Source: Marinosulfonomonas sp. (GTDB lineage: Bacteria > Pseudomonadota > Alphaproteobacteria > Rhodobacterales > Rhodobacteraceae). From it: a DNA stretch of 41,517 nt. Both the position numbers and the translations under genes were made by a program. The notes beneath the pieces were generated by a model, which was not told the DNA's origin, did no database searches, and saw only the letters and a program-made list of their open reading frames with translations. The stretch covers positions 1 through 41,517 of the forward strand of contig JALSJL010000469.1 in the NCBI GenBank assembly GCA_026989405.1, given 5' to 3'. Positions 506 to 33,223 of the stretch are shown here, one piece after another; positions within the stretch are counted from its first letter, which is position 1; each line of letters starts with the position of its first letter.

Positions 506-516
506 GCGAGGTCTGC

Positions 517-13746: not shown

Positions 13747-15066
13747 TCAGAAGACGCCCTGAAACGCGGTCGCCAGTTTTCCGGCAATCTCATCCACATG
13801 GCGATCTTCCATGATGAAGGGTGGCGCGAGCAATATGTGGTCGCCCCTCTTTCCATCGATCGTTCCACCCATCGGATAGCAAATCAGACCCGCATCGAAT
13901 GCCGCGCGTTTGAGCAGCTTGTGGGTGCCCCGTTCGGCCGGGAACGGCGCCTTGCTGTCGCGGTCTTCGACGATTTCTATTCCGAGAAACAGCCCGCGCC
14001 CCCGGATATCGCCCACATGCGGGTGTTGGCCAAAGGCATCCTGCAGCGCATCGCGCAACTGCTCTCCCCTTGAGCGGACCTGTTGCATCATCGCCGGCTC
14101 GGTAACTTTCTTCAGCACCGCCAATGCTGCGGCACAGGCTGTCGGATGGCCGACATAGGTGTGACCATGCTGAAAAAAACCTGATCCCTCTGCAATGGCC
14201 CGGTAGATCCTGCCCGAACACATCATGGCGCCAATGGGTTGATAGCCCGCGCCCAGCCCCTTTGCGACAACTGCAATGTCCGGATCGATGCCGTCCTGTT
14301 CACTGGCAAAAACCGTCCCGGTCCGGCCCATGCCGCACATGACCTCATCAAGGATCAGCAATACCCCATGACGGCTGCAGATATCGCGAATTCTCTCAAA
14401 ATATCCCGCGACCGGCGTGACCGCGCCCATGGTGGCACCCACGACCGGCTCGGCGACAAAGGCCATGACATTCTCGGCGCCAAGCCGCAGAATTTCACTT
14501 TCCAGCTCATCTGCAACACGCCGGCCGTAGTCCGCGGCGCTCTCGTCGGGGTGGCAATCACGATAGGCGTAACACGGCGAGATATGCGAGGTTTCGATCA
14601 TCATGGGCGAAAACGGCTCTCGGCGCCACATGTTGCCGCCGGTCGCAAGCGCACCAAGCGTGTTCCCATGGTAGCTTTGGCGCCGGGCAATCACCCGGTG
14701 TCTTTGCGGCTCTCCTGTTTCGAGGAAATACTGCCTTGCGAGTTTCAGGGCGGCCTCGACGGCTTCCGAGCCGCCGGATACGAAATAGACCCGGTCAAGT
14801 GAGGCTGGCGCGACGTCCACCAGCAGATCTGCAAGTTGCTCGGCCGCGTCCGAAGTGAAAAACCCGGTGTGGGCGAAGGCCACCTTGTCGATCTGCTCCT
14901 TTATGGCCGAAATGACATCCGGGTCGGAATGCCCAAGGCAAGACACGGCAGCACCGCCCGAGCCGTCGAAATACTGTTTGCCGTCGCGGTCATAAAGATA
15001 CACGCCATCGCCGCGCTCTGCGGTCGGGGGCGGCGGCCCGGCGTGTCTGGGAAATACATGGCTCAT
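13747..15066 (-). CDS. class III (omega-type) PLP aminotransferase
   Basis: 439 aa with LILDEVMCGMGRTG and GHTYVGHP motifs typical of the acetylornithine/GABA/omega-aminotransferase family. Confidence 0.85.
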   Translation of the reverse strand: MSHVFPRHAGPPPPTAERGDGVYLYDRDGKQYFDGSGGAAVSCLGHSDPDVISAIKEQIDKVAFAHTGFFTSDAAEQLADLLVDVAPASLDRVYFVSGGSEAVEAALKLARQYFLETGEPQRHRVIARRQSYHGNTLGALATGGNMWRREPFSPMMIETSHISPCYAYRDCHPDESAADYGRRVADELESEILRLGAENVMAFVAEPVVGATMGAVTPVAGYFERIRDICSRHGVLLILDEVMCGMGRTGTVFASEQDGIDPDIAVVAKGLGAGYQPIGAMMCSGRIYRAIAEGSGFFQHGHTYVGHPTACAAALAVLKKVTEPAMMQQVRSRGEQLRDALQDAFGQHPHVGDIRGRGLFLGIEIVEDRDSKAPFPAERGTHKLLKRAAFDAGLICYPMGGTIDGKRGDHILLAPPFIMEDRHVDEIAGKLATAFQGVF

Positions 15067-15185: not shown

Positions 15186-15770
15186 TCAGCGCAGCCCGTC
15201 CCGGCCTTCTGCGTCTTCGGCCTTCAGCCCGCCGACGCGTGGCAACGGCCGGCCGCTGTCTGTGACAGCCACAGCGACAAGAATTTCGTTCGCGCGCGGC
15301 GCATCGTTCAGCCTGACCTCGATCCCGTCGAAATGGCTGCGCACATAGGCGGCGTCCTTGTGACCGAGCGGCACGTCGAGCGCTTGCCCCATGCCCCCCA
15401 TCTTTTTCGATGACGGCACCAGGGCCGCCCCTTTCCCGACCGCCTTTCGCAGCGGCGCGCCAAGTTTGGGGTGCAGGATCGCGGCGGCATGTTCCAGTTC
15501 CCCGTTTTCACCGACCATGGCCGCCTTGCCATAGCTTTGGGCGTTCTCGGCCGTGATCCCCAGGGCCGCCACGCATTTTTCGCCCAGAAGCCCGCCCAAC
15601 TCGGCGCCGATCTCGATCAGATCACTCAGGTCCTCGACGTATTTTCCGGCGCAAGGGTTGGCAATGACCGCAGCGGCCACGGCCTTGCGCGTCGGGGGCG
15701 ATATTGTCTGACCGGCTTCGCGGCATGTCTCTTCGACAAAAATGGCGATCTTCCTGATGTCGGCTTTCAT
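15186..15770 (-). CDS. 'amino acid synthesis' family protein (DUF1185 / PF06684-like), paralog 1
   Basis: 194 aa, colinear with the adjacent 195-aa paralog. Blocks NPxAGxYVE, YGKxAxVGExGELEH, VPSxKKxGG, LDVP...YVRSHFD, DAPxAxEIL; ends in DGLR. The family call is from memory of such proteins and needs an HMM check. Confidence 0.6.
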   Translation of the reverse strand: MKADIRKIAIFVEETCREAGQTISPPTRKAVAAAVIANPCAGKYVEDLSDLIEIGAELGGLLGEKCVAALGITAENAQSYGKAAMVGENGELEHAAAILHPKLGAPLRKAVGKGAALVPSSKKMGGMGQALDVPLGHKDAAYVRSHFDGIEVRLNDAPRANEILVAVAVTDSGRPLPRVGGLKAEDAEGRDGLR

Positions 15771-16354
15771 CGCAATCCATCCTCTCCCTTGATCTGCCAG
15801 GCTTCCAGCCCGCCGGACCGCGAGTGCACCCGCCCCCCGGTGCTCATGACCAGAACCAGCAGGATTTCATCGGCTTTCGGGGCATCCGCCAACCCGACCT
15901 CCATCGCATCGAAATGGCTGCGCACATATGAGGCATTGGTATGGGTAATGGGCACATCCAGCCTTGTTCCCGGGCCACCGACCTTTTTGGCCGACGGAAC
16001 GATTGCATTGCTGGAGCCGAGCAACTGGCGCATGGCATATCCTCCGGGCGCATGCCAGAGCGCGCCGTGTTCCAGCTCGCCCGCTTCCCCGACGATCGCG
16101 CCCTTGCCGTAGCCCTCGATCATGCCCGGCCCCCCGAGCATGTCGACCAGCCGTTGTGCCATTCTCAGGCCAAGCGGACGCAGGTCTTCGATGAACCCCT
16201 GGATAGTCTCGACATATCGCCCTGCGAACGGGTTTTCGACCACCGCCAGAGCAGCCGCCCGGCGTTGCGGGCTTTCGGGCGGGGGGCCGAACTCATGGAA
16301 GATATCTTCACAATGAGTGGCAAATTTCCTCAGGATCGGTTCAGGCATGTTCAA
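15767..16354 (-). CDS. 'amino acid synthesis' family protein (DUF1185 / PF06684-like), paralog 2
   Basis: 195 aa with the same conserved blocks as paralog 1. Its stop overlaps the paralog 1 start (ATGA at 15767-15770). Confidence 0.6.
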   Translation of the reverse strand: MNMPEPILRKFATHCEDIFHEFGPPPESPQRRAAALAVVENPFAGRYVETIQGFIEDLRPLGLRMAQRLVDMLGGPGMIEGYGKGAIVGEAGELEHGALWHAPGGYAMRQLLGSSNAIVPSAKKVGGPGTRLDVPITHTNASYVRSHFDAMEVGLADAPKADEILLVLVMSTGGRVHSRSGGLEAWQIKGEDGLR

Positions 16355-17225
16355 CCCTTCCAGAGCCGGGGGCGGTCATTGGCAGATGCCCCACCATACG
16401 GTGCGCGCCCCGCAGAAACAAAGCGGCGGCTTCGATCAGCCCGGCCCGATGAAATGCTTGCGCGCGCCTCTGTCCCCGGTCGAGCGCCCGGCGGATATCA
16501 CCACGAGACAGCTCTCCGACCGCGGTCACAACCGCGCGCGCGCCCAGATCGCTGTCGGGCTGAAGCGCGTTCGCCGGCGCACGGGAAATGGCCGGGTGCC
16601 GCGGCAGGTCGACGTCGTTGGCGATCAGCGTGGCCGCAACATCGGCCGCGGCGGCAGACCGGGCCAGAACGGTCACGCTGTCGGCGATACCCATGGACAG
16701 CGAACGCCCGCCAAGGCCGCTGGTCGCAAGACCGCGCACCTTCGTCTCGGCGTCCACCGAGACCACCCCAAGCCGGTGGCCTTGCGGCCCTGCAATCGCC
16801 ACCTCGAAACCGGGGCGGGGCGTGCAGTTCGGCGAAAGATGCAGCGCAATGTCTCCGCCGTTGTTCACATAGGCCCGCCGCAAGGGGGCGGCCGCCTGCA
16901 TGGCCGCCAGCACCTCTTCGGCAACGGCGCCGGCAACGGCCGCCATGGGCGTCACGAAAACCCCGTCGAGCCCGCGAACCGCGGCGCCCATGCGGGCTGC
17001 GACGGCGCCCTCGAACCGGGTGTCGACCCCCACGGGACGGCGCAGAAGCGCAAGCTCCGACACCAGTTCTTCAAGGATCGAGGCAAACCGCCCCTGTGCC
17101 GCCGAAAAGGCGTCCGGGTGCGCAGCTTCGGCCCCGATGATCAGATCGATCGGACCGTGCTGCAGATGCAACCGCTTGCCGGAAAGCCAGGTAGAACGTG
17201 GCCCCATCATGGTTTGCCGTCCCAT
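16341..17225 (-). CDS. UPF0280 family protein (ApbE-like fold suspected)
   Basis: About 290-aa ORF overlapping both neighbours. The alternative start at 17210 would give an ATGA overlap with the upstream stop. The family call rests on memory of this conserved neighbourhood (hnr - UPF0280 - DUF1185) and on size; needs an HMM check. Confidence 0.5.
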   Translation of the reverse strand: MGRQTMMGPRSTWLSGKRLHLQHGPIDLIIGAEAAHPDAFSAAQGRFASILEELVSELALLRRPVGVDTRFEGAVAARMGAAVRGLDGVFVTPMAAVAGAVAEEVLAAMQAAAPLRRAYVNNGGDIALHLSPNCTPRPGFEVAIAGPQGHRLGVVSVDAETKVRGLATSGLGGRSLSMGIADSVTVLARSAAAADVAATLIANDVDLPRHPAISRAPANALQPDSDLGARAVVTAVGELSRGDIRRALDRGQRRAQAFHRAGLIEAAALFLRGAHRMVGHLPMTAPGSGRVEHA

Positions 17226-18694
17226 TTGTAACGCCCTGGATCATGCGGATCCGGCCCGAAACCCCTGACCCGCCGCACTTGTCCTTCCTGGATCGTGTCC
17301 AGCGGCCGGACGTCCTCCATATGTCCGCCCAGGTCCCGATAGTCGGCCAGCCGCATGGTAAACTCGATCGGCGCGACAAGGGCCGGTGTCGGCACATACC
17401 CGAACGCGTTGGTGGGCATTTCGGTAACATCAGCCATGACCGTGATACCGCCCCCCGGCCAGACATAGGCCTGCGCCCCGCCACAGGAAACATAGGTCAG
17501 CGCATCGCGCACCGAACGGGTCAGCCGCACCGGGTTTTCCGTGACCCCGGCCCGCAACGAGCCGCCGGCGCCGCCCATGAACAAGACCGAGCAAAACGAA
17601 GGTTCGCAGTTTTCGGCAATGCGCTCGACTGACGCCTTCAAGGCCGTCGGTATCGGGGCCGGCTGCGGAACCAGATCGGCGTCGAGTTCGAAATAGGCAA
17701 ATTGCTCGCCGGTTGTCGAAACCATCAGCAAACGAAGCCCGGGCCATGCGTATTCGGGGTCTGCGTCCTTGAGGACGGCCAACGGATCCTGCACATTCGT
17801 GCCGCCCCAGCCGGTGCCCGGCTCTGCCACCTGAAAATAGCGGCCCGGTGTTGACCGGCGCCCGTTCACCCGGATGCCCGTGCGTTTCACGCCAAGCAGC
17901 TTGCCCGCCTGATGTTCAGACAGAACGCCGGTAATGTGATCATCGACGACGATGACCTCATCCGCATGATCAACCCATTGGGCCGCAAACATGCCGATGG
18001 CGGCCGACCCGCAGCCCACGCGCATCAGTTTTTCCGCGGTCCCTTCGATTATCGGCGCCTTTCCGGCCTGCACCACGACCTGCGCGCCTTCGTCGATGTC
18101 CATCGTCACCGCGTCCCGGTTGCACAGCCGCAGCACGGCATCACAGGTCACCCGCCCCTCTCGCTTGGAGCCGCCGGTCAGATGCTCGACCCCACCCAGA
18201 GACAGCATGCGCGATCCGTATTCGCTGGTCATGACATGACCGATTGCTTCCCCGTCCACGCGCACCACGGCGCGTTCCTGTCCGATATGGCGGTCGGTGT
18301 CGATCTTCACCTTGACGCCGCAGTAGGAAAATATCCCCTCGGTTACGACGGTCACCATGTCGATGCCGTCGATTTCCTGACTGACGATGAAAGGTGCCGG
18401 TTTGTAGTCAGGGTAGGTTGTGCCCGCGCCAATGGCGGTCACGAACTGGCGACGGCTGTGCAAAAGGTCGCCATCCCAGTCGGCATCGCCGTTTTCGCCC
18501 AGAAACGGCACGGACCTGACACCTTTCCCGGCGCTGGTTTCCAGGATCGTGAGGGGGTCCAGGCGGACCAGCCGGCCTTCCTGGTTTGCATAGCGGTCGC
18601 ACGCCCCGGCCCGACCTTCGGCGATGAAGCACAGAACGGGGCACGCATCGCAACGGATCTTGTCTGCGGAAGCTGTGCGGGATTTCCCGGTCAT
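17207..18694 (-). CDS. 6-hydroxynicotinate reductase-like iron-sulfur flavoprotein
   Basis: Tracked ORF 17207..18769 trimmed to the Met at 18694 (ATGA overlap with the upstream hydroxylase stop). N-terminal Cys cluster CDACPVLCFIAEGRAGAC (CxxCxxxCx9C). Flanked by an XDH-family hydroxylase and an enamidase-like amidohydrolase, as in nicotinate clusters. Confidence 0.6.
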   Translation of the reverse strand: MTGKSRTASADKIRCDACPVLCFIAEGRAGACDRYANQEGRLVRLDPLTILETSAGKGVRSVPFLGENGDADWDGDLLHSRRQFVTAIGAGTTYPDYKPAPFIVSQEIDGIDMVTVVTEGIFSYCGVKVKIDTDRHIGQERAVVRVDGEAIGHVMTSEYGSRMLSLGGVEHLTGGSKREGRVTCDAVLRLCNRDAVTMDIDEGAQVVVQAGKAPIIEGTAEKLMRVGCGSAAIGMFAAQWVDHADEVIVVDDHITGVLSEHQAGKLLGVKRTGIRVNGRRSTPGRYFQVAEPGTGWGGTNVQDPLAVLKDADPEYAWPGLRLLMVSTTGEQFAYFELDADLVPQPAPIPTALKASVERIAENCEPSFCSVLFMGGAGGSLRAGVTENPVRLTRSVRDALTYVSCGGAQAYVWPGGGITVMADVTEMPTNAFGYVPTPALVAPIEFTMRLADYRDLGGHMEDVRPLDTIQEGQVRRVRGFGPDPHDPGRYKWDGKP

Positions 18695-21426
18695 GTTGCG
18701 CCCCCGCGATCGATGGCCGCCTTCAGCCGCGCCGGCGTGACTGGCAGCCGGGTGACACGCACACCGCATGCGGCCCTGATTGCATTCAAGATCGCCGGAG
18801 CCGTGGGCACCAGGGCATGTTCGCCCAGCCCCTTGGCCCCGTATGGCCCATGCGGGTCCGGCTCTTCCACAATCAGCGTTTCAATCGGAGGAATATCGCC
18901 GATTGTCGGGATCAGGTAGTCATGCAGGTTTTCGGTCTTGCCGGGAACATATTCTTCCATCAGAGCCATGCCCAGGCCTTGCGCAATCCCGCCCTGGATC
19001 TGGCCTTCGACCAACAGGGGGTTGATGGCACGGCCGACATCATGGGCCGCCACCATGCGCAGGACGCGGGTCGTGCCCAGCGCCATGTCCACCTCGACGA
19101 CGGCCAACTGCGCGGCGTAGCCAAACTGGGCGTAGGGCTCGCCCTGCCCGTTTTCATCCAGCGGTCTTGTGGGCGGGTCGTAGGTTTCTGCGGCCCGGAA
19201 GACATAGCCTTCGCGGTCGGCATCAAGGCGGGCCAGGTCAATTCGATGGCTCTTGCCGTCGTCGCGCACATGGATGCTTCCGGCGCGCAGGTCAATCACA
19301 CTGTCCGGCGCTGCATTCACCTTGCCAAGTATGTCACGCCGCAGCGCCTCGCCGGTCAGGCGCGCTGCATTTCCGCTGACAAATGTCTGACGTGATGCCG
19401 ATGTCTTGCCGGCATCCGGCGTGATGTCGGTATCGGCCCCCAGGATCCTCATCCTGGAAATCGGCACGCCAAGCGCTTCAGAGAAAATCTGCGCAATAAC
19501 GGTGTTGGAGCCTTGCCCGATATCGACCGCTCCCTGATGGAGCACCAGCGAACCATCGGCGAGGATGCCGGCCTTGATCGTCGAGGGGTTGGGAAGTGAC
19601 GTGTTTCCGCAACCATACCAGCCACAGGCCAGGCCGACTCCCCGTCGCACCCCAGGCGTCGCGCCGCCGGCGTTGACAGCTTTCGCCGCCGCCCGTTCGC
19701 GCTGCCAGAACGGGCGCAGAGCCCTGAGGCAGGCGCCGATACCGACGCCGCGCTCAAACACCTGTCCGCAGACCGTGGGCATGCCATTTTCCAGGGCGTT
19801 TTTCAGCCGGAACTCCAGCGGGTCCAGGCCCAGTTTTTCGGCCAGGTCATCAAACAGGCTTTCTTGCGCCACGGCCGCCTGTGGCACCCCGAAGCCACGA
19901 AACGCACCCGATGGCGGCGCGTTGGTGTGCACGGCCTTCGCCGATGCCCGGTAAGCGCCAACCCGATAGGGGCCCGACGCATGAACCGGCACACGGTTGG
20001 CAACCGTCGGGCCCCATGATGCGTAGGCCCCGGTATTGAATTCCGCTTTGAAATCAAAAGCCTGGATGGCTCCGTCGGCGTTTGCTCCGATCGTCAGACG
20101 CATGATCGCCGGATGCCGTTTGGTTGTCGATTTCATCGACTCCGACCGCGTATAGGCCAGCCTTGCCGGGCGGCCTGTCGCCAGCGCTGCCAGCGCCAGA
20201 TACGGTTGAACCGACAGATCGAGCTTGGCTCCGAACCCCCCGCCAACAGCGGTCGGCACGATGCGGATCCGGTCTGGCTCCATTGCCAGAATACCGGCCA
20301 GGGCTTCCTGGTCCATGGCGGGGGCTTGCGTGCAGGCGTGCAGCTCCAGCCGGCCATCAACCATCTGCGCAAACCCGGCTTCGGGCTCGATATAGGCATG
20401 CTCCACGAATGACGTCTGAAATTCACCGGACACAGTCACGTCCGCCTCGCGCAGGGCGGCTTTCGGATCACCCTGCAAGACAAAACCCTCGCACATCAGG
20501 TTGCCGGGGCGGTCGGCGTGAAGGGGTGTTGCATCGCGCGCCTGTGCCGACGCCAGGTCTTCGACACCCGGCAAGCGGGAAAAGCGGATCGGCAGGTCAT
20601 CAAGATCGAGCGCCCGCAAGGCCGGCGGCTCGCCAATGACCGACGCAACGGCCTCGCCTCTGAACCGGCAGAGTTTTTCTGCAAAAACCGGCTGGTCAAG
20701 AAAGCCCGGAATGACGCCGAACCGATTGCACCCCGGCACGTCCGCAGCCGTCTGGACGGCAACGATCCCCGGATGCGCTGCCAGAAAGGCGGTCGTATCG
20801 CCGATCTCGAAGCTCGCCGCGGCATGGGGAGACCGGACCACCCGAATTTCCAGAGTGCCCGGCGGCGCGATGTCGTCACCGAATTTCTCGCGGCCCTCGA
20901 CTTTTGCCAGACCATCGGTTTTTCGGATCGCCGCCCCGACGCCCCCCTCGCGCAGGCGTTCTTCAGGCGCGCGCACCGCCAGCACGGCCGCAATGATCTT
21001 GCGGTATCCCGTGCACCTGCACAAGACACCGCCAAGCGCATCCATCACCGCTTTTTCGTCGGGCTCCGGGCACTCGCGCAACAGCGCCGTCGCGCAGACC
21101 AGCATGCCCGGCGTGCACACCCCACATTGAGCGGCGCCAAAATCCTGAAAGCTCTCGCAGAGCCCGGCGGCAATCGGGTCACCTCCGGCAAGCCCCGACA
21201 CGGTTTCAACCAGGCGACCGGCCGCCTGGTGGACCGGCATGAGGCAGGCGCAAATCGGTTTGCCATCCACCAGAACGGTGCAGGCGCCACAGTCTCCGGC
21301 ATCGCATCCGACCTTCACATCGCGGCCATCAAGCCGTTCGCGCAGCGCATGAGACAGCCGTTCGCCGGGATCGGCCGTCACAGTGACCGGCCGGCCGTTC
21401 AGGTTGAACGCCACCATATCAGTCAT
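18691..21426 (-). CDS. xanthine dehydrogenase-family molybdenum hydroxylase, fused 2x[2Fe-2S] + MoCo subunits (candidate nicotinate/N-heterocycle hydroxylase)
   Basis: N-terminus has CDAGDCGACTV, CGVCTPGM and CRCTGY ferredoxin motifs. The C-terminal ~750 aa is an aldehyde oxidase/XDH a/b-hammerhead plus MoCo-binding region (VGGGFGAKL). 911 aa. Confidence 0.85.
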   Translation of the reverse strand: MTDMVAFNLNGRPVTVTADPGERLSHALRERLDGRDVKVGCDAGDCGACTVLVDGKPICACLMPVHQAAGRLVETVSGLAGGDPIAAGLCESFQDFGAAQCGVCTPGMLVCATALLRECPEPDEKAVMDALGGVLCRCTGYRKIIAAVLAVRAPEERLREGGVGAAIRKTDGLAKVEGREKFGDDIAPPGTLEIRVVRSPHAAASFEIGDTTAFLAAHPGIVAVQTAADVPGCNRFGVIPGFLDQPVFAEKLCRFRGEAVASVIGEPPALRALDLDDLPIRFSRLPGVEDLASAQARDATPLHADRPGNLMCEGFVLQGDPKAALREADVTVSGEFQTSFVEHAYIEPEAGFAQMVDGRLELHACTQAPAMDQEALAGILAMEPDRIRIVPTAVGGGFGAKLDLSVQPYLALAALATGRPARLAYTRSESMKSTTKRHPAIMRLTIGANADGAIQAFDFKAEFNTGAYASWGPTVANRVPVHASGPYRVGAYRASAKAVHTNAPPSGAFRGFGVPQAAVAQESLFDDLAEKLGLDPLEFRLKNALENGMPTVCGQVFERGVGIGACLRALRPFWQRERAAAKAVNAGGATPGVRRGVGLACGWYGCGNTSLPNPSTIKAGILADGSLVLHQGAVDIGQGSNTVIAQIFSEALGVPISRMRILGADTDITPDAGKTSASRQTFVSGNAARLTGEALRRDILGKVNAAPDSVIDLRAGSIHVRDDGKSHRIDLARLDADREGYVFRAAETYDPPTRPLDENGQGEPYAQFGYAAQLAVVEVDMALGTTRVLRMVAAHDVGRAINPLLVEGQIQGGIAQGLGMALMEEYVPGKTENLHDYLIPTIGDIPPIETLIVEEPDPHGPYGAKGLGEHALVPTAPAILNAIRAACGVRVTRLPVTPARLKAAIDRGGAT

Positions 21427-22309
21427 GGCGCACCGCCAGCCCGGCTGCCGACGTCATGGCCCGGCGGATCAGTTCGGCGGCGGCGTCCAGCCGATAGCCA
21501 GCCGTGGCGCGGACATCATCGATGGCGGCAAGGGCCGACAGGTCCTGCGGTCTCACCAATGCCGGGTCGGCCAGGCCGGATACCGGCGTGCCCTGCAAAC
21601 GCTGCTCCAGCGCGCCCAACCTGGTGGCCACGGGCGAACAGGCCCCCACGGCCACCCGAAGATCGTCCAGGCACCCCGCCTTCAGCCGAACCGCCACCGC
21701 GACCATCGCAATCGAGATCACAAGATATTGCCGCGCGCCCAGTTTTTCGAAGGCGCTGGCAAGGCCCCTTGCCGGCGGGATACGCACGCCGATCAGGATT
21801 TCGTCCTTGTGTCGCGCGGTCTTGCGGACCCCCCGCAAGAATTGCGACAGGGCAATGACGCGCTTTCCGCTGACAGAAGCAAGATGCACTTCGGCATCCA
21901 GAACCAGCAGCGGCGGTATTCCATCAGCCGCCGGCGATGCGTTGCAGATATTGCCGCCAAGGGTTGCCGCGTTCTGAATCTGTCGGGCGCCAACCTCGCG
22001 CGCCGCCTGTTGCAGTCCGCAAAAGGCCGGCGGCAGATCGGCATCCCGGATTTCGGCCCAGGTGGTCGCGCCACCGATCCACCAACCGCCCCCCTGGTCC
22101 TTGCCCTCAGGCCAGATACCCCGCAACGTCTCGATGCGCGTGATGTCCAGCAGGTCGCGATCAGGCACCGATTGACCGGCGGCCGGAAAATGGTCCGTTC
22201 CGCCAGCCACAATCTGCGCCCCCGCCGCAAGAACGTCCAATGCGTCATCCAGAGAATTGGGAGCGAAATAGGTCACGGCTTTCCCTGCGCGGTTTTGTTT
22301 GCATGCCAA
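21419..22309 (-). CDS. FAD-binding subunit of the molybdenum hydroxylase (CoxM/XdhB-like)
   Basis: 296 aa with the AGGTD motif (IVAGGTDHFPA). It overlaps the downstream hydroxylase start by 8 nt. A GTG at 22276 is an alternative start. Confidence 0.8.
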   Translation of the reverse strand: MACKQNRAGKAVTYFAPNSLDDALDVLAAGAQIVAGGTDHFPAAGQSVPDRDLLDITRIETLRGIWPEGKDQGGGWWIGGATTWAEIRDADLPPAFCGLQQAAREVGARQIQNAATLGGNICNASPAADGIPPLLVLDAEVHLASVSGKRVIALSQFLRGVRKTARHKDEILIGVRIPPARGLASAFEKLGARQYLVISIAMVAVAVRLKAGCLDDLRVAVGACSPVATRLGALEQRLQGTPVSGLADPALVRPQDLSALAAIDDVRATAGYRLDAAAELIRRAMTSAAGLAVRHD

Positions 22310-22428: not shown

Positions 22429-23607
22429 ATGGACAGACACTCACAAAAACTGGTGGTGCGCAACATCGGCTTGATGCTGTCAGGCATGCTGGAACACCCC
22501 ATTCTTGACGCCGACTGCATTGTCGCCGTTGACGGGAAGATCGCGGCCATCGGATTTGAAAAAGACCTGGACACCGACGGCGCAACGACGACTGTCGATG
22601 CACATGGCGTCACGCTTGCCCCGGGTCTGATCGACAGCCACGTTCACCCTGTCATCGGAGACTATACGCCGCGCCAGCAACAGCTGCACTGGATCGACAG
22701 CACGTTGCATGGCGGCGTGACAACCATGATTTCGGCAGGTGAAGTTCATTTGCCGGGTCGGCCCAAGGATGTGGTCGGCCTCAAGGCGATGGCCATCGCG
22801 TCGCAGAGATGGTACGAAAATTTCCGCCCGTCGGGCGTCAAGGTTCATGCCGGCGCGCCCATTCTTGAAGAAGGCATGGTCGAACAGGACTTCAAGGACC
22901 TGGCCGACGCCGGCGTCAAGCTGTTGGGCGAAGTCGGCCTTGGAACCGTCAAGGACGGCAAGACGGCAAGACAAATGGTCGGCTGGGCAAGAAAATACGG
23001 CATTCAAAGCACCATCCATACCGGGGGCCCCTCAATCCCGGGATCGGGACTGATCGACGCCGACATGGTTCTGGAAACCGGCGCCGACGTCATTGGCCAC
23101 ATCAACGGCGGCCACTCTGCCTTGCCCGATGATCAGATCATCTGCCTTTGTGAAAACTGCTCCAAGGGGCTGGAAATCGTGCACAACGGCAATGAGCGCG
23201 CCGCTGTCCTGACGCTGAATACCGCGCGCGAGCTGAAACAACTGAACCGGGTCATTCTCGGAACTGACGGGCCGGCGGGATCGGGGGTGCAGCCGCTTGG
23301 CATCTTGCGGATGGTGTCGATGTTGTCAGCCTTTGGCAATGTTCCGGCCGAGCAGGCGTTTTGTTTTGCAACCGGCAACACGGCGCGCGAACGCGGGCTG
23401 GATTGCGGCATTCTCGCTCACGGTCGCTCGGCGGATTTCGTTCTCATGGACCAGGCCCAGCACGCCCCGGGAAAGAACATTCTCGAAAGCGTGCAGCTTG
23501 GCAACCTGCCGGGTATCGGCATGACGATCATTGATGGTGTCATTTGCAGCCATCGCAGCCGCAACACGCCGCCGGCACAGCGCTTGCCCCAGGAGGTGAC
23601 CGCCTGA
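22429..23607 (+). CDS. enamidase-like metal-dependent amidohydrolase
   Basis: Tracked ORF 22240..23607 trimmed to the Met at 22429 (GGGGGG RBS-like sequence). About 392 aa with the HxH metal motif IDSHVHP. Divergent from the hydroxylase/hnr operon, matching the ena position in nicotinate clusters. Confidence 0.65.
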   Translation: MDRHSQKLVVRNIGLMLSGMLEHPILDADCIVAVDGKIAAIGFEKDLDTDGATTTVDAHGVTLAPGLIDSHVHPVIGDYTPRQQQLHWIDSTLHGGVTTMISAGEVHLPGRPKDVVGLKAMAIASQRWYENFRPSGVKVHAGAPILEEGMVEQDFKDLADAGVKLLGEVGLGTVKDGKTARQMVGWARKYGIQSTIHTGGPSIPGSGLIDADMVLETGADVIGHINGGHSALPDDQIICLCENCSKGLEIVHNGNERAAVLTLNTARELKQLNRVILGTDGPAGSGVQPLGILRMVSMLSAFGNVPAEQAFCFATGNTARERGLDCGILAHGRSADFVLMDQAQHAPGKNILESVQLGNLPGIGMTIIDGVICSHRSRNTPPAQRLPQEVTA

Positions 23608-23763
23608 CCAGATCGGCACCCGACACCAAGCGCCCCTGTTGTGCGGCCGACCTGCCCCGAACCTTCCGGGACTTCGAATTTTCTGGACAATAATTTTGCT
23701 GGCACTCAATCTAGTGGAAAACGACCGGGAGCTGGTCGACACTCAATACCAGGGAGACGAAAC

Positions 23764-25050
23764 ATGGCTCAACAGAAAACCGATGGCCTGATCGCACCGA
23801 CCCGCCGGGCGGTGCTCAAGGGCGTGGCGGCGACAGGCCTGGCAACGGCCATGCCCGGCCACCTGTATGGCGCAACCGACGAGCCGATCCGCGTCGGATT
23901 TCAGGTGCACCGCACCGGCATCGGCGCATCCTACGGCCGCTGGTATGACCGCACGACCACCGCCGCGGCCCGCGTCATCAACGAAGCCGGCGGGATCAAC
24001 GGCAGACCCCTCGAGATCATTGCCGAAGACGACGGCACCGACCCGAAACGCGGGGCGGAAGTCCTTGAGAAATTCGCAAACCAGCACAATTGCGATATTG
24101 CCTACGGCACATTGTTCAGCCATGTGGTCATCGGATCGGCCCCGCGCGCGGCCGAGTTGAAACTGCCCTATTTCGTGGTCTCTGAAGGCCACCATGTCGC
24201 GTCCGGCATGCTCAACCGCTACACGCTGCAACCGGGTATCACCGACGTCAAGAGCCAGGTCCAGGCCATGGCCCCGTTTGTCGCGGCCAACCTTGGCAAG
24301 AAGGTCACGATGATCTACCCGGATTTCGCTTTCGGCCACAACCACCGGGATTTCTTCGGTGACGCGATCGAAAAGGAAGGCGGCCAGGTTGTCGCGAAAA
24401 TCGCCATTCCGCCAACCGAAACATCTTTCACCCGGTATTTCCCGCAGATCCCGCGCGAGACCGAGGTGATCTATCATGTGATGGTCGGTCCGGCCGTTCT
24501 GACCTTTGTGAAGGAGATGGGCGAATTTTTCGGCCCGTCGAGCCCGGAAATTTTCGGGTTCATCGATTCACTCGAGGCCGTCGACCTGGCAACGCCGGGG
24601 CTGGAATTTCTGGACGGGTCCTTCTTCTGGGAAGGCCACCCGCGCTATGCACAGCCGGACCAGACCGAATATGACAAATTCTACCGTGAGCAGGTCGGCG
24701 TCGATGAAAATGGCGCCTCGGTCGATGACCCCAGGGACGTTTCCACCTACTCGCACATGTTCGCGTGCTGGGAAACGCTGCATGTGATCAAGGATGGCAT
24801 GGAAGCGGCGGGCTACAAGGGGCCGCAGGACCGGGCGGCGCTGATCGAAGCGGTCGAGGCGATGACCGACATGCCGGAAAGCCGGGCCCATCCACAGGGC
24901 CCCAAGATATTCAACGGCAAGACCCACCAGGTTTTCGGCGTGCAGTATATCAGCCAGGTCAACGGCGGCCGGCTTGACGTGAAACATGTCACGTCGATCG
25001 AAGACGGGCTGTATCCGGACGAAGTGGACTACACCACCCAGCCGCTCTGA
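23764..25050 (+). CDS. ABC transporter periplasmic substrate-binding protein (Leu/Ile/Val-binding, HAAT family) with Tat-type signal
   Basis: Tracked ORF 23641..25050 trimmed to the Met at 23764 (AGGGAGA RBS). N-terminal PTRRAVLKGVAATGLATAMPG fits the S/T-R-R-x-F-L-K twin-arginine motif. Followed by LivHMGF-type genes. Confidence 0.75.
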   Translation: MAQQKTDGLIAPTRRAVLKGVAATGLATAMPGHLYGATDEPIRVGFQVHRTGIGASYGRWYDRTTTAAARVINEAGGINGRPLEIIAEDDGTDPKRGAEVLEKFANQHNCDIAYGTLFSHVVIGSAPRAAELKLPYFVVSEGHHVASGMLNRYTLQPGITDVKSQVQAMAPFVAANLGKKVTMIYPDFAFGHNHRDFFGDAIEKEGGQVVAKIAIPPTETSFTRYFPQIPRETEVIYHVMVGPAVLTFVKEMGEFFGPSSPEIFGFIDSLEAVDLATPGLEFLDGSFFWEGHPRYAQPDQTEYDKFYREQVGVDENGASVDDPRDVSTYSHMFACWETLHVIKDGMEAAGYKGPQDRAALIEAVEAMTDMPESRAHPQGPKIFNGKTHQVFGVQYISQVNGGRLDVKHVTSIEDGLYPDEVDYTTQPL

Positions 25051-25060
25051 GACCCGAGTC

Positions 25061-25090
25061 GCATGCCCTGCCCGCTGGGGTCGGGCATGC
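25061..25090 (+). other. intercistronic stem-loop between the binding-protein and permease genes
   Basis: GCATGCCC (25061-25068) / GGGCATGC (25083-25090), an 8-bp stem with a 14-nt loop, 10 nt after the SBP stop. Such hairpins often set SBP:permease stoichiometry. Confidence 0.4.
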
Positions 25091-25124
25091 ATCGCAGCCA
25101 CCGTTCCAACCACATCAGGACGCT

Positions 25125-26051
25125 ATGGATTTCGGCCCGCACCTACTCCTTGCCATGCTCGAAGGGCTTGTGCAGGCCTCGGTCCTGACGCTGACGGCGC
25201 TGGGGCTGTCACTGGTTTTCGGTGTGATGCGGGTCGTGAATGTCGCCCATGGCGAATTTTTCATGCTGGGTGCGGTGCTGGCATGGTGGATCACCTTTCT
25301 GGTTGGCGGCCCGCCGGCGCTGGCCTTCATCGTGGCACTTCTGGTTGCGCCACTTCTGGTGGGAACAATTGCCGCTGCCGCCGACTGGCTGGTCTTGCGC
25401 CGGATCGACTATGATCCCGAGCGCACGATCGTTGCCACGATCGGGCTCTTGTATATTATCCAACAGCTCACGCTGATGTCCTATGGGCCGGATGCGCGCC
25501 CGGTTGCGCCGCCGTTCAACACGCGTCTGGCTCTGCCCTGGTTCGAATTCGGCAGCGGGGGGGTGCAGATCTACTGGCCCTGGGGCCTTTCGATCACAAG
25601 TTACAAGCTGTTCGTCATATTCGCAGCCCTTCTGACCGGGCTTGCTCTCTGGGCGGTCATGGCGCGGTCCCGCCTCGGGCTGATCTTGCGGGCAACCCAG
25701 CAAGACCGGGAAACCGCGCAGGCATTCGGCGTGCCGGTCGAGCGTGTCTATGCCCTGGTTTTCGGCCTTGGCGCGGCCCTTGCGGCCCTGGGCGCGACAC
25801 TGGTCGTGCCCATTCAGCAGGCGCATTACCTGATGGGAGGCGATCCGCTGCTGCTCAGCTTCATCGTGGTGATTATCGGCGGGCTGGGCTCGTTGCGCGG
25901 CACTGTTGTCGCGGCCATTCTCATCGGCATGAGCGACGGCATCATCTCGGTTTTCTTTTCCCCCACGCTGGCCAAGATGCTGGCCACGCTTCTTGTGGCC
26001 ATGGTGCTGGTCTTTCGCCCGCAGGGTCTGTTCGGAAGCAAGCCGGCATGA
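25125..26051 (+). CDS. branched-chain amino acid-type ABC transporter permease (LivH-like)
   Basis: 308-aa polytopic membrane protein typical of LivH-type permeases. ATGA overlap with the next permease gene. Confidence 0.85.
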   Translation: MDFGPHLLLAMLEGLVQASVLTLTALGLSLVFGVMRVVNVAHGEFFMLGAVLAWWITFLVGGPPALAFIVALLVAPLLVGTIAAAADWLVLRRIDYDPERTIVATIGLLYIIQQLTLMSYGPDARPVAPPFNTRLALPWFEFGSGGVQIYWPWGLSITSYKLFVIFAALLTGLALWAVMARSRLGLILRATQQDRETAQAFGVPVERVYALVFGLGAALAALGATLVVPIQQAHYLMGGDPLLLSFIVVIIGGLGSLRGTVVAAILIGMSDGIISVFFSPTLAKMLATLLVAMVLVFRPQGLFGSKPA

Positions 26052-26983
26052 GCCGCGCCGTGGGCCTGCACCTGGGGGTGATCGCCGCGCTGTTGGCGTT
26101 GCAGTTCGTGTTGCCGGCCTATCACCATGGCGTCCTTGCGCGGGTGATGGTGATGGCGGTCTTTGCCATGGGCTACAACGTGATGTTCGGCTACACGGGT
26201 TTGCTGAGCCTTGGGCACGCGATGTTCTTTGCCGCCGGCATGTATGGCATGGGGCTTGCCATGAAACAGTGGGACGTGCCGCTTGTGCCGGCGTTCCTGC
26301 TGGGCATCGCGGCGGCGTTCCTTCTGGCGCTTGTCGTCGGCGTGCTGGCACTGCGCACGGCGGGCGTGGCCTTCATGATCGTGACGCTGATGTTTTCACA
26401 GTCCCTTTTCCTGGCCATTCTCCATTTCGGGGCGATCACCCGCGGGGATGAGGGCTTTGCCCTGGCCCGGTCCCTGCGCCAGGTTGCCGGGCTGGACCTG
26501 GCGGCGCCGGCAACACGCTATTTCGCGGCATGGGGCCTGTTTTCCGTTGTCTTGCTTGGCACGCTCGCCCTGGTGCGCTCGCGCCGTGGTCGCGTCCTGG
26601 TGGCCATCCGGGAAAACGAAGAGCGCACCCGGATGCTGGGCTACGATGTCTGGCGCCACAAGCTGATGGCGGTTGTGGTCTCGGGCACGATCTGCGGTGC
26701 CGCGGGGGCGGCCTACGGGGTGTTGTTTGGCTATGTCGGCGCCAGCTTTTCGCAGGTGCCCTATTCGATCTTTCCGCTGTTGTGGGTGTTGCTTGGTGGC
26801 GCCGGCACGGTGATCGGGCCGTTCGTGGGAACGCTGTTCATGTTCTACCTGATCGACCTGTCCAGCGGGCTGACCGACGCATACATGCTGGTTGTTGGCG
26901 TTGCGCTCGTGCTGCTGACGCTGTTCCTGCCCAGGGGGCTGATGGGAAGCCTGCGCGACCGGGGGATGAAATGGCTGCCGTGA
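26048..26983 (+). CDS. branched-chain amino acid-type ABC transporter permease (LivM-like)
   Basis: 311-aa polytopic membrane protein with the YTGLLSLGHAMFF motif typical of LivM. Confidence 0.85.
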   Translation: MSRAVGLHLGVIAALLALQFVLPAYHHGVLARVMVMAVFAMGYNVMFGYTGLLSLGHAMFFAAGMYGMGLAMKQWDVPLVPAFLLGIAAAFLLALVVGVLALRTAGVAFMIVTLMFSQSLFLAILHFGAITRGDEGFALARSLRQVAGLDLAAPATRYFAAWGLFSVVLLGTLALVRSRRGRVLVAIRENEERTRMLGYDVWRHKLMAVVVSGTICGAAGAAYGVLFGYVGASFSQVPYSIFPLLWVLLGGAGTVIGPFVGTLFMFYLIDLSSGLTDAYMLVVGVALVLLTLFLPRGLMGSLRDRGMKWLP

Positions 26984-27687
26984 GCTTGTTGAGCACCCAT
27001 GCCCTGAGCCGCAACTATGGCGGGTTGCAGGCCGTGAAAAACGTCAGCCTTGACATATCGCAGGGCGAGGTCCGCGCGCTGATCGGGCCAAATGGCGCCG
27101 GAAAGACCACCCTGGTTTCAATGCTGTGCGGACGCATCCCGGCGACCTCTGGCCAGGTGGTGTTCGAGGGCCGCGACGTGACAACCCTGCCCGCTCACCG
27201 ACGCATAGCACTGGGCATGGCCTATACGTTCCAGATCACGTCCGTTTTTGCCGAACTGAGCGTGAGTGAAAACGTGGAACTGGCCGTTCAGCGGCATATC
27301 GCCGAGCGCCAGAAGATCACGGCACAGGTTGACCGGACGCTGGAACGGGTCGGGCTGGGCCGGATGGCAGACAGGACCGCAGGCGACCTTGCCTATGGCC
27401 ACCAGAGGTTGCTGGAAATTGCGATGGGTCTGGGACAGACTCCAAAACTGTTGATCCTCGATGAGCCGACGCAGGGACTGTCCGACAGCGAGATCGAAGA
27501 CTTTGTTGCGCTCATCCGCTCGGTTTCGGAAAAATCAACTGTCCTGCTCATCGAGCACAACATCAATGTTGTCATGGCGCTTGCCGACAAGATCACCGTT
27601 CTGAATTTCGGAGAGATCATCGCCGAGGGCACACCCGGGGAAATCCGTGCAAACGAGGCGGTGCAGACCGCCTATCTGGGGGGCTGA
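26971..27687 (+). CDS. ABC transporter ATP-binding protein (LivG-like)
   Basis: Tracked ORF 26530..27687 trimmed to the Met at 26971 (a GTG at 26980 is also possible). Walker A GPNGAGKTT, signature-like LAYGHQRLLEIA, Walker B LLILDEP. Confidence 0.9.
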   Translation: MAAVSLLSTHALSRNYGGLQAVKNVSLDISQGEVRALIGPNGAGKTTLVSMLCGRIPATSGQVVFEGRDVTTLPAHRRIALGMAYTFQITSVFAELSVSENVELAVQRHIAERQKITAQVDRTLERVGLGRMADRTAGDLAYGHQRLLEIAMGLGQTPKLLILDEPTQGLSDSEIEDFVALIRSVSEKSTVLLIEHNINVVMALADKITVLNFGEIIAEGTPGEIRANEAVQTAYLGG

Positions 27688-28382
27688 TGCTGGAACTGCG
27701 CAACCTTGATGCGGGCTATGGCAAGGTGCAGGTGCTGCGCGACCTTTCACTGCACGCCAGGCCCGGTGAAATCCTGTGCCTGCTCGGGCGCAACGGGGCC
27801 GGCAAGTCGACATTGATGAAATCCATCATGGGGCTGGTCCGGGCGCAGGCCGGCAGCATCTGGCTTGACGGGCAGCGGATTGACCAGCTGCCGGCCTGGC
27901 AGGTGCCCAGGCTGGGCATCGGATATATCCCTCAGGGGCGCCGGCTGTTCAACGAGATGACCGTCGCCGAGAACCTTCAGATCGGACTGATGGCGCGACG
28001 CAAGGGCGCGGATGTGCGCGAAAACGTGCTGAACATGTTTCCGCGCCTGCGTGACCGGCTGAACCAGCGGGCCGACACGCTGTCGGGTGGTGAACAGCAG
28101 ATGCTGGCCACCGCCCGCGCGTTGTGCCTTGAACCAGGTGTCTTGTTGCTTGATGAGCCGACAGAGGGTTTGCAGCCCTCGATGATATCGCTGATCCGCG
28201 CGGCGGTTGTCGCGCTCAGGAAACAGGGGGTTGCCATCGTTCTGGTCGAACAGCGGGTGGAAGCCGTCCTGCAGGTCGCCGATCGGGTGACATTTGTGGA
28301 AAACGGTCAATGCGTGCTGACGGTCACGCCCAGCGAACTGCACGCCGACGAAAGCCTGCTGCATCGCTACGTCGGGGTTTAG
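27687..28382 (+). CDS. ABC transporter ATP-binding protein (LivF-like)
   Basis: Walker A GRNGAGKST, signature LSGGEQQML, Walker B LLLDEP. TGATG 1-nt overlap with the upstream ATPase gene. Confidence 0.9.
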   Translation: MLELRNLDAGYGKVQVLRDLSLHARPGEILCLLGRNGAGKSTLMKSIMGLVRAQAGSIWLDGQRIDQLPAWQVPRLGIGYIPQGRRLFNEMTVAENLQIGLMARRKGADVRENVLNMFPRLRDRLNQRADTLSGGEQQMLATARALCLEPGVLLLDEPTEGLQPSMISLIRAAVVALRKQGVAIVLVEQRVEAVLQVADRVTFVENGQCVLTVTPSELHADESLLHRYVGV

Positions 28383-28406: not shown

Positions 28407-28850
28407 CTAGGTCAGTTTGCGCAGCAGGTGAAGAAACAGCGCCTGCTCGCTTTGCGACAACGGAACCAGTGTTTCTTCGGTGACGCGCCGGGCCTTTGGC
28501 TCGAGCTCCTGGAACAAGGCGCGTCCGGCATCTGTCAGTGAAACGATGGTGCGGCGGCGGTCGGTCTTGTCGTTTTCCGTCCTGACCAGATCGCGCTTCC
28601 CAAGCCTGTCGACGACACCCTTGATCGTGGCGGCATCCATCGCCGTCAGACGTCCGAGCGCGTTTTGCGACAGTGCGCCGGCTTCGTTCAGCTTGGCAAG
28701 CGTGGCAAACTGCATCGAGGTCAACTCGGGTATCGTCGCCGTAAACAGCGAAAGATGGCGTTGCGATGCCCGGCGCAGCAAAAACCCGACCTGATCGTCA
28801 AGACGATAGGGTATCGTGGCAGGGTCGTCGGTCGGGTCTGGCGCGCTCAT
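28407..28850 (-). CDS. MarR family transcriptional regulator
   Basis: wHTH region LTSMQFATLAKLNEAGALSQNALGRLTAMDAATIKGVVDRLGKRDLV...DKTDRRR. Start set at the Met at 28850 because the longer ORF (28922) would run into the upstream terminator hairpin. Confidence 0.85.
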   Translation of the reverse strand: MSAPDPTDDPATIPYRLDDQVGFLLRRASQRHLSLFTATIPELTSMQFATLAKLNEAGALSQNALGRLTAMDAATIKGVVDRLGKRDLVRTENDKTDRRRTIVSLTDAGRALFQELEPKARRVTEETLVPLSQSEQALFLHLLRKLT

Positions 28851-28912
28851 GGGGTCCAAGCTGACGCAAAAGGGGCGATCAGTAAAGCGCCGCGGTGTTT
28901 TTTCACGGGAAA

Positions 28913-28937
28913 GGCCGGGCAAGTCTTGCGCCCGGCC
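28913..28937 (-). terminator. hairpin terminator after the coxM-like gene
   Basis: GGCCGGGC (28913-28920) / GCCCGGCC (28930-28937), an 8-bp GC stem with a 9-nt loop. On the minus strand it is followed by TTTCCCGTGAAAAAA, and it lies 28 nt after the coxM-like stop. Confidence 0.45.
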
Positions 28938-29747: not shown

Positions 29748-29759
29748 TTTTCCGGCTCC

Positions 29760-32129: not shown

Positions 32130-32179
32130 TGTTGATCTCCCTGTTTATCCGTTCCGCCCGGCATGGACGGGGCGCGTGC

Positions 32180-32647
<468 letters not shown>

Positions 32648-32698
32648 CTTGTCCTCCCTTGTTGTCCTTGTCCGGTCGTCTGTTGGCGGCGCCCGGTT

Positions 32699-33223
32699 TC
32701 AGCTGAACATTTTCTTGATGAGTCCCTTTTTCTTTTCCGGTTCACGACCGGTGTCATCGTCATCCGGCGCCTCGTCATCTGACCGGGGCGCAACTGCGTT
32801 CTGAAAATTCTCGAAAAACTGGTCGGCCAGCTTTTTCGCGACCCCATCAATCAGCCGCGCGCCCAGGCTGGCAAGCTTGCCACCGACCTTTGCGTCGACC
32901 TCGTAGCTCAGCGTGGTCACCCCATCGGTTTCGTCCAGCCGTACGTTCGCGCCGCCCCTGGCATAGCCGGCCGGCCCCCCCTTGCCTTCGCCCGATATGC
33001 GGTAGCTTTCGCCTTCGATCACATCGCTCAGCGTCACGACGCCCTTGAAGGTTGCCTTCACGGGGCCGATTTTCTGGGTCACGGTGGCCTCGAACCCATC
33101 GTCGGCATTGCCGGTCATTTCCTTGCAACCGGGGATCGCGGCCTTGAGTATCTCGGCATCATTCAGCGCGCGCCAGACGGTCATGCGATCGGCAGCAATC
33201 GTTCTGCTTCCCTTCAGATCCAC
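32699..33223 (-). CDS. coxG: SRPBCC-fold CoxG family protein
   Basis: N-terminus [33 protein letters not shown] matches the usual CoxG opening; 174 aa with a charged C-terminal tail; cox context. Confidence 0.75.

Follow-up and report, generated by a model that had tools for sequence, protein, structure and literature searches.

Two gene families accompany hnr, the gene for the 6-hydroxynicotinate-reductase-family protein (Hnr), almost everywhere, and neither has a defined reaction; what do they do in the operons that they close? The question is posed here by a 41,517-nt stretch of Marinosulfonomonas sp. DNA (assembly GCA_026989405.1, contig JALSJL010000469.1), called the window at its full length, in which a UPF0280 gene and two DUF1185 paralogs, DUF1185b and DUF1185a, follow hnr with overlapping starts and stops. 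The window contains a proteobacterial nicotinate cluster of flavin adenine dinucleotide (FAD) subunit, molybdenum (Mo) hydroxylase and Hnr, plus a divergently oriented enamidase and ATP-binding cassette (ABC) transporter, and represents a further instance of a cluster that is widespread and had been noticed before. Together the three genes form the conserved end of its catabolic operon, and they probably encode one helper that installs a cofactor and two that act as enzymes. Our best explanation, held tentatively and at somewhat less than an even chance, combines UPF0280 as a flavin maturation factor for Hnr with a DUF1185 a/b hexamer that helps after ring hydrolysis. Nicotinate would be converted through 6-hydroxynicotinate and 1,4,5,6-tetrahydro-6-oxonicotinate to 2-formylglutarate and NH3, with UPF0280 dedicated to inserting or repairing the flavin that Hnr binds covalently. 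DUF1185a and DUF1185b would assemble, with no redox cofactor, into a mixed hexamer arranged as a trimer of a-b dimers. This hexamer would be a helper enzyme for labile ring-opened products, acting by enamine tautomerisation or hydrolysis and/or by decarboxylation of 2-formylglutarate to glutarate semialdehyde, a role that would parallel that of TgnF in succinate-semialdehyde oxidation.

The association of the three genes with hnr was followed through two sets of loci. The genome set comprises 80 loci with window-type Hnr (66–76% identity) from Rhodobacterales, Rhizobiales, Acidobacteriota and others, and the metagenome set 80 loci of a distant lineage in which Hnr is ~44% identical to that of the window and has an N-terminal 2x[4Fe-4S] domain; matches to the hnr family occur in at least 593 species genomes of the scanned collection. 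Counting only loci with enough flanking DNA, and taking 10 kb on each side as the neighbourhood, UPF0280 lies directly after hnr in 72/75 genome and 58/60 metagenome loci, and at least one DUF1185 gene lies downstream of hnr in 71/74 and 37/40, which bears out the co-occurrence raised in a preliminary description of this DNA. The DUF1185 pair of that description is not general: two copies are present in 59/74 genome loci and 0/40 metagenome loci, and a single a-type copy is found in 12 genome loci and in all 37 of the 37 DUF1185-bearing long metagenome loci. Adjacency survives rearrangement, since a still more distant lineage (L171, Hnr 37% identical) has the order UPF0280-DUF1185-hnr, and in L088 a GltD::Fer4::Hnr fusion is followed by a gene of PF27030, the Pfam family of UPF0280. 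Rhizobium loci keep hnr-UPF0280-DUF1185b-DUF1185a, and two Bradyrhizobium loci hnr-UPF0280-DUF1185a, with neither hydroxylase nor enamidase within 10 kb. The hnr, UPF0280 and DUF1185 genes are thereby shown to be a module kept together across deep divergence, by a link that is strong and not absolute.

Rates of divergence separate the members of this module. Across the genome loci DUF1185a is the slowest-evolving cluster gene (65–86% identity, with 58–68% retained where Hnr has fallen to ~44%), as expected of an enzyme; UPF0280 (46–60%) is among the fastest, like the FAD subunit (44–57%), as is typical of assembly factors. That UPF0280 diverges much faster than Hnr (66–76%) is difficult to reconcile with a permanent holoenzyme, in which all three proteins would be stoichiometric Hnr subunits, UPF0280 as the flavin-binding point of electron entry and the DUF1185 hexamer as scaffold. 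Such an arrangement would suit the translational coupling of every junction and the conservation of the DUF1185b/a overlap; window-type Hnr has no 2x[4Fe-4S] domain, so that an extra electron-entry partner is conceivable, and ApbE-family proteins, to which UPF0280 is compared below, bind FAD (title of PDB 3PND). However, Fer4-bearing and GltD-fused Hnr are also accompanied by UPF0280 and DUF1185, several loci pair hnr with one partner only (L104, L145, L133, L140, L149 and L075, which is hnr-DUF1185a), and DUF1185 homologs occur in pathways free of Hnr (TgnF and HcdD, PMC7913881; BB2672, PMC2954203). None of the three proteins has a Cys or cofactor motif, which also removes the electron-transfer subunits suggested in the preliminary description, and we regard the holoenzyme as unlikely. 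Replacement of the missing ferredoxin domain by UPF0280 or DUF1185 was likewise rejected, as the loci of Fer4-bearing Hnr have them too. Translational coupling of the two paralogs is conserved, and the stoichiometric co-production with the reductase that had been read from the tight coupling is not universal, as some loci with hnr and enamidase have no UPF0280 or DUF1185 within 10 kb.

The pathway to which the module belongs is indicated by its neighbours. Hnr is encoded with Mo hydroxylase and enamidase in the window, and the same linkage recurs in most of the 160 related loci. The enamidase homolog has the Eubacterium barkeri enamidase (2VUN) as its sole strong match in the PDB (E 4e-109), and relatives of the window Hnr at 73–76% identity carry the NCBI name 6-hydroxynicotinate reductase; no Pfam domain was matched in the window Hnr itself, which has a Cys15/18/22/32 motif that is invariant in a diverse Hnr alignment. 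The hydroxylase matches chains A, B and D of E. barkeri nicotinate dehydrogenase (3HRD_A, B, D) among other Mo hydroxylases; its best PDB matches are aldehyde oxidoreductases and it reaches no NCBIfam equivalog cut-off. Alhapel et al. 2006 reportedly found the nicotinate genes in nine Proteobacteria. The E. barkeri Hnr (EC 1.3.7.1) is reported by the same authors to contain covalently bound flavin, alongside a Cys cluster additional to its N-terminal 2x[4Fe-4S] domain. In the Azorhizobium pathway as reported by Kitts et al. 1992, the product of enamidase is decarboxylated and then oxidised to glutarate, and we know of no enzyme assigned to that decarboxylation. As in the Ndh-Hnr-Ena systems of E. 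barkeri, Azorhizobium caulinodans and Bradyrhizobiaceae, the first three steps are encoded together in the window. It differs from E. barkeri and proteobacterial systems in that the iron-sulphur and molybdenum-cofactor (MoCo) parts of the hydroxylase are fused into one protein of 911 aa and in that Hnr is without the N-terminal 2x[4Fe-4S] domain, distant relatives carrying Fer4 or GltD-like fusions; the downstream B12-dependent branch of E. barkeri is not in the window. As at AZC_2790-2804 and elsewhere, an ABC transporter and conserved unknown proteins are present (PMC3511419). A paper of 2012 described this cluster, with its 'conserved proteins of unknown function', and assigned it to nicotinate/6-chloronicotinate degradation in Azorhizobium and Bradyrhizobiaceae, a Bradyrhizobiaceae Hnr being 42% identical to that of E. 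barkeri (PMC3511419). This assignment, the very strong enamidase match and the presence of nicotinamidase-like genes in 7 genome and 7 metagenome loci make it highly improbable, and the least probable of the readings considered here, that the operon acts on another N-heterocyclic carboxylate and that the three genes serve that pathway. Such a substrate would fit a hydroxylase that stays below the equivalog cut-offs and resembles aldehyde oxidoreductases, a transporter of branched-chain-amino-acid type, and the quite different neighbours of hnr (CoA ligase, carboxyltransferase, Amidohydro_2) in the distant locus L174.

A maturation role for UPF0280 is suggested by its fold. The preliminary assignment of the tail to one UPF0280 and two DUF1185 proteins stands on profile comparison: the first scores 346.3 bits with NF003322 (PRK04334.1-2; curated cut-off 290) and ~60 bits with the other three NCBIfam UPF0280 models, and PF27030, 'AbpE_bact', is the precomputed Pfam family of this protein and its relatives. 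An AlphaFold (AF2) model built from 33 homologs has a predicted local distance difference test score (pLDDT) of 92. In a Foldseek search with this model, DVU1097 (2O34) is the best match (E 2e-10, template modelling (TM) score 0.57–0.69) and is followed only by ApbE, Ftp and FmnB proteins (probability 0.9–1.0, TM 0.33–0.48, 11–18% identity); PDB sequence and profile searches with Hnr and the UPF0280 profile gave 2O34 as the sole meaningful match. Alignment by hhalign with Escherichia coli Ftp pairs RAYVNNGGD with RYLVSVGG, GLATSG with GISTSG, and SVTVLA…AAD190VAAT194 with SVTVIA…EADAWDT, and D190, T194 and ATSG are invariant in the 33 UPF0280 sequences. We take the Asp…Thr pair (A-D-x-x-x-T) to be the Mg2+ site and ATSG to be the nucleotide-site motif of ApbE/Ftp enzymes. 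The fold and these conserved motifs fit the maturation factor that was among the functions first proposed for the three proteins. DVU1097, a DUF375/UPF0280 protein solved by structural genomics, is the closest solved structure (profile E 3e-10) and shares GGD, SLSLG and AD..AT; its identity is ~23%, a His replaces the Arg169 that is invariant in the window subfamily, and it would seem to be a member of another UPF0280 subfamily. ApbE, Ftp and FmnB (PDB 4XGV, 6NXI, 7ESA) have the same fold with aligned ATSG and Asp…Thr, and differ in that UPF0280 is ~60 residues shorter, has the catalytic-His loop deleted or replaced, and has no signal peptide, E. coli Ftp having a lipoprotein signal. A literature search found nothing on UPF0280, nor on covalent attachment with Hnr.

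Both DUF1185 proteins match PF06684 over its full length (profile 1–175/175; 244.1 bits for DUF1185a and 234.5 bits for DUF1185b, gathering score 27), and DUF1185a is the counterpart of SPO0826 (2QTP; E 7e-99). They are colinear paralogs as first described: every motif listed there as shared occurs in both, as does the terminal DGLR, and they are 46% identical over 190 aa (E 3e-52). The 63 b copies in a tree of 189 DUF1185 sequences (a- and b-type) group monophyletically to the exclusion of every a-type member, so that a single, recent duplication gave rise to DUF1185b, which is never found without DUF1185a in the same locus. The 4-nt overlap between the two genes recurs in 42/60 related loci, with a 1-nt overlap in 5 more, and the arrangement is thus not due to chance. 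Both paralogs keep K82, E91, E93, H94, H100, R108, S120, K122, K123, D132, R144, H146, D148, R174 and R178, and since all conserved polar residues are retained DUF1185b is not a degenerate subunit. In BB2672 interface salt bridges join Glu90/Glu92 to Arg172/Arg176, and His144 is strictly conserved (PMC2954203); E91, E93, R174, R178 and H146 (window-a numbering; the salt-bridge residues served to infer the offset from BB2672) reach at least 97% conservation across the 189 sequences. About half of the positions that discriminate a from b (95–103, 169, 172) are close to two elements, the helix and the post-β7 segment, from which the BB2672 hexamer builds its large dimer interface (PMC2954203). 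The b clade, the co-occurrence, the coupling and the substitutions near the interface support, by inference, an a-b heteromer, and the hetero-oligomer of the preliminary description is consistent with them. SPO0826 and BB2672 (3BYQ), the first DUF1185 structures, were studied as homo-oligomers, whereas the window has an a/b pair in which each paralog keeps the salt-bridge Glu/Glu/Arg/Arg. The 'amino-acid metabolism' label of DUF1185 goes back to 2010, when it was inferred because genes for branched-chain-type ABC transporters lay nearby (PMC2954203). Since a transporter of this kind forms part of the nicotinate cluster, which it neighbours in 37 related genome loci, the 'amino acid synthesis' label of PF06684 is probably a context artefact.

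The role of the DUF1185 pair may be approached through homologs in other pathways. According to PMC7913881, which cites Perchat 2018, TgnF of Acinetobacter baylyi, a DUF1185 homolog, stimulates TgnE-dependent oxidation of succinate semialdehyde in the catabolism of trigonelline (N-methylnicotinate). That neither family has an experimentally defined function, as the preliminary description held, is correct in so far as no reaction is defined, and has to be qualified for DUF1185, of which TgnF is a partly characterised member. HcdD of the Pseudomonas mandelii 7-hydroxycoumarin pathway is a further homolog and sits beside HcdE, an ene-reductase acting on the C=C of the unsaturated lactone 7-hydroxycoumarin (PMC7913881). 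Both homologs, their homology being as given in PMC7913881, lie like the window pair inside heterocycle-degradation operons, whereas their pathways are without Hnr, UPF0280 or a second DUF1185 copy. Succinate semialdehyde, the substrate in the case of TgnF, is the one-carbon-shorter analogue of glutarate semialdehyde, and 2-formylglutarate the one-carbon-longer analogue of the formylsuccinate/succinate-semialdehyde stage of the trigonelline pathway. A step after ring hydrolysis, one of the functions first suggested for the three genes, remains the best guess for DUF1185 by this analogy with TgnF. In 20 Fer4-type metagenome clusters an aldehyde dehydrogenase nearest to the CoA-acylating methylmalonate-semialdehyde dehydrogenase (400 bits, cut-off 448) is encoded a few kb upstream of hnr (e.g. 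L097:3228-4775), which argues that an aldehyde of malonate-semialdehyde type is processed in the cluster; this enzyme could convert 2-formylglutarate directly to glutaryl-CoA and CO2. RidA-like genes are present only in two hnr loci that are without DUF1185, a restriction that is suggestive at n=2. RidA is another protein of chorismate-mutase-like fold.

Alternatively, DUF1185 might act with the reductase itself, as a cofactor-less tautomerase or protonation helper in the ene-type reduction of the pyridone ring, with UPF0280 still a maturation factor. The persistence of hnr-UPF0280-DUF1185 where no enamidase lies within 10 kb, the hydantoinase A/B-like genes in some Rhizobium loci (assigned by eye) and the existence of L075, where DUF1185a alone follows hnr, would all be accommodated, and reduction of a C=C bond by HcdE beside HcdD is chemically analogous to the reduction of 6-hydroxynicotinate (PMC7913881). 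Yet no stimulation of HcdE by HcdD was shown (PMC7913881), TgnF acts at an aldehyde oxidation in which no reductase takes part (PMC7913881), and in L044 and L053 the a-type copy is separated from hnr and immediately follows an amidohydrolase paralog. We consider a role in the reduction quite unlikely and prefer to place the DUF1185 pair after ring hydrolysis.

Several observations weigh against the combined explanation of a flavin maturation factor and a post-hydrolysis hexamer. The UPF0280 protein scores 18.9 bits against Pfam ApbE (PF02424), below the gathering score of 25.6 and over a partial match, and the segment SH(V/I)IDP that holds the ApbE catalytic His aligns with LSMGIA, the next ~11 residues being deleted; the place of this His might be taken by the invariant R169 or by H15/H18 near the N terminus. 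Taken with the missing lipoprotein signal and the fold match, these features make UPF0280 a sister family within the ApbE superfamily and not an ApbE in the strict sense. The canonical ApbE acceptor is D-x-x-(S/T)-G-A-(S/T) in an FMN_bind domain, and the neighbouring candidate acceptor, the window Hnr, has neither that domain nor a match to [ST]GA[ST] or [ST][GS]A[ST]. Its AlphaFold model, built from 34 close homologs, has a mean pLDDT of 48.8 and is unusable, so that no flavin site can be proposed beyond the invariance of Y159 and T446, the only invariant hydroxyl residues in the Hnr alignment. To our knowledge the E. barkeri cluster is without UPF0280 and DUF1185 genes, and covalent flavin attachment may then be autocatalytic. 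Four loci (L084, L174, L175, L176) have hnr with neither UPF0280 nor DUF1185 within 10 kb, and L084, L175 and L176, unlike L174, also carry enamidase-type amidohydrolases. The Rhizobium and Bradyrhizobium modules with no nearby enamidase fit a role in reduction as well as one after hydrolysis. TgnF is a precedent with no defined mechanism, and attempts to show stimulation by HcdD failed (PMC7913881). In a bolder version, UPF0280 would be a new cytoplasmic, His-less ApbE branch that flavinylates Hnr at a non-canonical site, for example Thr446, and the aerobic nicotinate pathway would find its missing 2-formylglutarate decarboxylase/tautomerase in the DUF1185a/b hetero-hexamer; we judge this very unlikely.

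To the earlier description of the cluster the present analysis adds quantitative deep synteny, the structural placement of UPF0280 as a cytoplasmic relative of ApbE that lacks the His and keeps its metal-site motifs intact, the single origin of the b paralog and its dependence on a, and a likely account of how the misleading Pfam label arose; the mechanism for the three proteins is inferred. The hosts of the hnr family include many marine Rhodobacterales, Rhizobiales and soil Acidobacteriota. If UPF0280 matures Hnr, ApbE-type flavinylation would extend to a cytoplasmic enzyme and a new acceptor site. The proposed role of DUF1185 would fill the Azorhizobium-type decarboxylation or aldehyde-handling step, account for the 'assisting' effect seen with TgnF and set the Pfam label right, and a DUF1185a/b decarboxylase or tautomerase would give PF06684 its first defined reaction. 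The synteny statistics make both questions of function directly testable in a tractable roseobacter or rhizobium.

The genes of the operon occupy 15186–22309 on the minus strand (Table 1), and on reading its junctions all five start/stop overlaps of the preliminary description were present. The FAD subunit and hydroxylase share 8 nt (ATGACTGA, 21419–21426, in the minus-strand reading), hydroxylase and hnr an ATGA (18691–18694), hnr and UPF0280 an ATGA (17207–17210), UPF0280 and DUF1185b the sequence ATGCCTGA (16341–16348), and DUF1185b and DUF1185a an ATGA (15767–15770); Shine-Dalgarno-like GGAAGGG and GGAGAGG precede the starts of DUF1185b and DUF1185a, respectively. A mechanical list of open reading frames (ORFs) has longer versions of hnr (from 18769), UPF0280 (from an ATG at 17225) and DUF1185b (from a TTG at 16354), and the shorter starts are preferred on homolog lengths and profile alignments: Hnr homologs are 493–499 aa and align from the Met at 18694, and the NCBIfam profile begins at residue 6 of the longer UPF0280 ORF, which favours 17210. 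The enamidase ORF of the list, from 22240, is 63 codons too long and overlaps the FAD-subunit ORF (22309); as the 2VUN alignment begins at query residue 70 and a G-rich stretch lies upstream of the Met, the start is placed at ATG 22429. Given that start, the divergent intergenic region is ~119 bp and holds the top promoter-like match of the scan, TTGACA-18-TATCGT (10/12), directed into the hydroxylase operon. The ABC transporter comprises a binding protein, two permeases and two ATPases.

Table 1. Genes of the nicotinate cluster and their boundaries, in coordinates of the whole 41,517-nt window.
Feature	Coordinates	Strand	Basis and remarks
FAD-binding subunit, Mo hydroxylase (putative nicotinate dehydrogenase)	21419..22309	-	PF00941 E 5e-40, PF03450; exact start uncertain
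Fused [2Fe-2S] and molybdopterin hydroxylase subunit (putative nicotinate 6-hydroxylase)	18691..21426	-	Fer2, Fer2_2, Ald_Xan_dh_C, MoCoBD_1, MoCoBD_2
hnr, 6-hydroxynicotinate-reductase-family protein, 495 aa	17207..18694	-	NCBI names of relatives; no Pfam domain
UPF0280/PF27030 protein, 289 aa, candidate flavin (cofactor) maturation factor for Hnr	16341..17210	-	NF003322 346 bits
DUF1185b (PF06684), lineage-specific paralog, 194 aa	15767..16348	-	PF06684 E 7e-70
DUF1185a (PF06684), SPO0826 (PDB 2QTP) counterpart, 194 aa	15186..15770	-	PF06684 E 8e-73
Enamidase (1,4,5,6-tetrahydro-6-oxonicotinate amidohydrolase) homolog, divergent	22429..23607	+	PDB 2VUN E 4e-109
Branched-chain-amino-acid-type ABC transporter, putative substrate uptake	23641..28382	+	Peripla_BP_6, BPD_transp_2 x2, ABC_tran x2
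MarR-family regulator	28407..28922	-	PF01047, PF12802

Related loci vary in the genes that stand around the module. Hnr proteins P0246 and P0251 (L088:1606-4554) carry a fused NAD(P)H-oxidoreductase module that resembles GltD (Fer4 + Fer4_20 + Pyr_redox_2), which points to NAD(P)H as the electron donor in these lineages. A gene for an Fpr-type ferredoxin-NADP+ reductase, absent from the window, is found just 5' of the FAD subunit in 16 related loci, usually in the same orientation; its product could supply electrons to Hnr without a ferredoxin domain. A VanA-like Rieske oxygenase, also not in the window, is encoded directly 3' of DUF1185a in 13 loci and may, as a speculation, demethylate a nicotinate derivative such as trigonelline; examples of these two genes among the genome loci are L026:5246-6322 and L005:14205-15509. 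The nicotinamidase-like genes mentioned above belong to the isochorismatase family (e.g. L059:11848-12579, L145:4027-5097), one of them with a weak match to nicotinamidase/pyrazinamidase, and are consistent with nicotinamide feeding into the pathway. Five Rhizobium-type loci each have hydantoinase/oxoprolinase A- and B-like ORFs after DUF1185a (assigned by eye; e.g. L045:13860-16013, L055:15588-17480) and no enamidase within 10 kb, which hints at an ATP-dependent alternative for lactam opening. In L174 (GCA_040960625.1) a 469-aa Hnr homolog, 40% identical and without Fer4, follows a Mo hydroxylase, and downstream of it are an ADP-forming CoA ligase, a cupin, a carboxyltransferase, RidA and an Amidohydro_2 protein; at this locus an Hnr-like reductase may serve some other heterocycle pathway.

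Beyond the operon, a class-III aminotransferase (NF005685, 758 bits; 13747–15066) lies 119 nt 3' of DUF1185a on the same minus strand, and no intrinsic terminator was seen between the two. It was rejected as a pathway member, since such a gene is near hnr in 1/80 genome loci and there as a weak match (33% identity, 9 kb off); in the distant metagenome locus L087 another Aminotran_3 gene lies ~5 kb from hnr. Two long ORFs without a Pfam match, 490–1722 (plus strand, 410 aa) and 40299–41435 (minus strand, 378 aa), could be real or, at the 63% GC of this sequence, shadow ORFs, and the remainder of the window includes tricarboxylic acid cycle genes. At the other end of the transporter, the MarR gene, which has counterparts in 18 related loci, adjoins a second Mo hydroxylase cluster, of CoxSML type (28965–35517, minus strand), with genes for an FAD subunit, a 789-aa MoCo subunit, a 2Fe-2S subunit, CoxG, a CoxE-like von Willebrand factor A (VWA) protein and an AAA ATPase.

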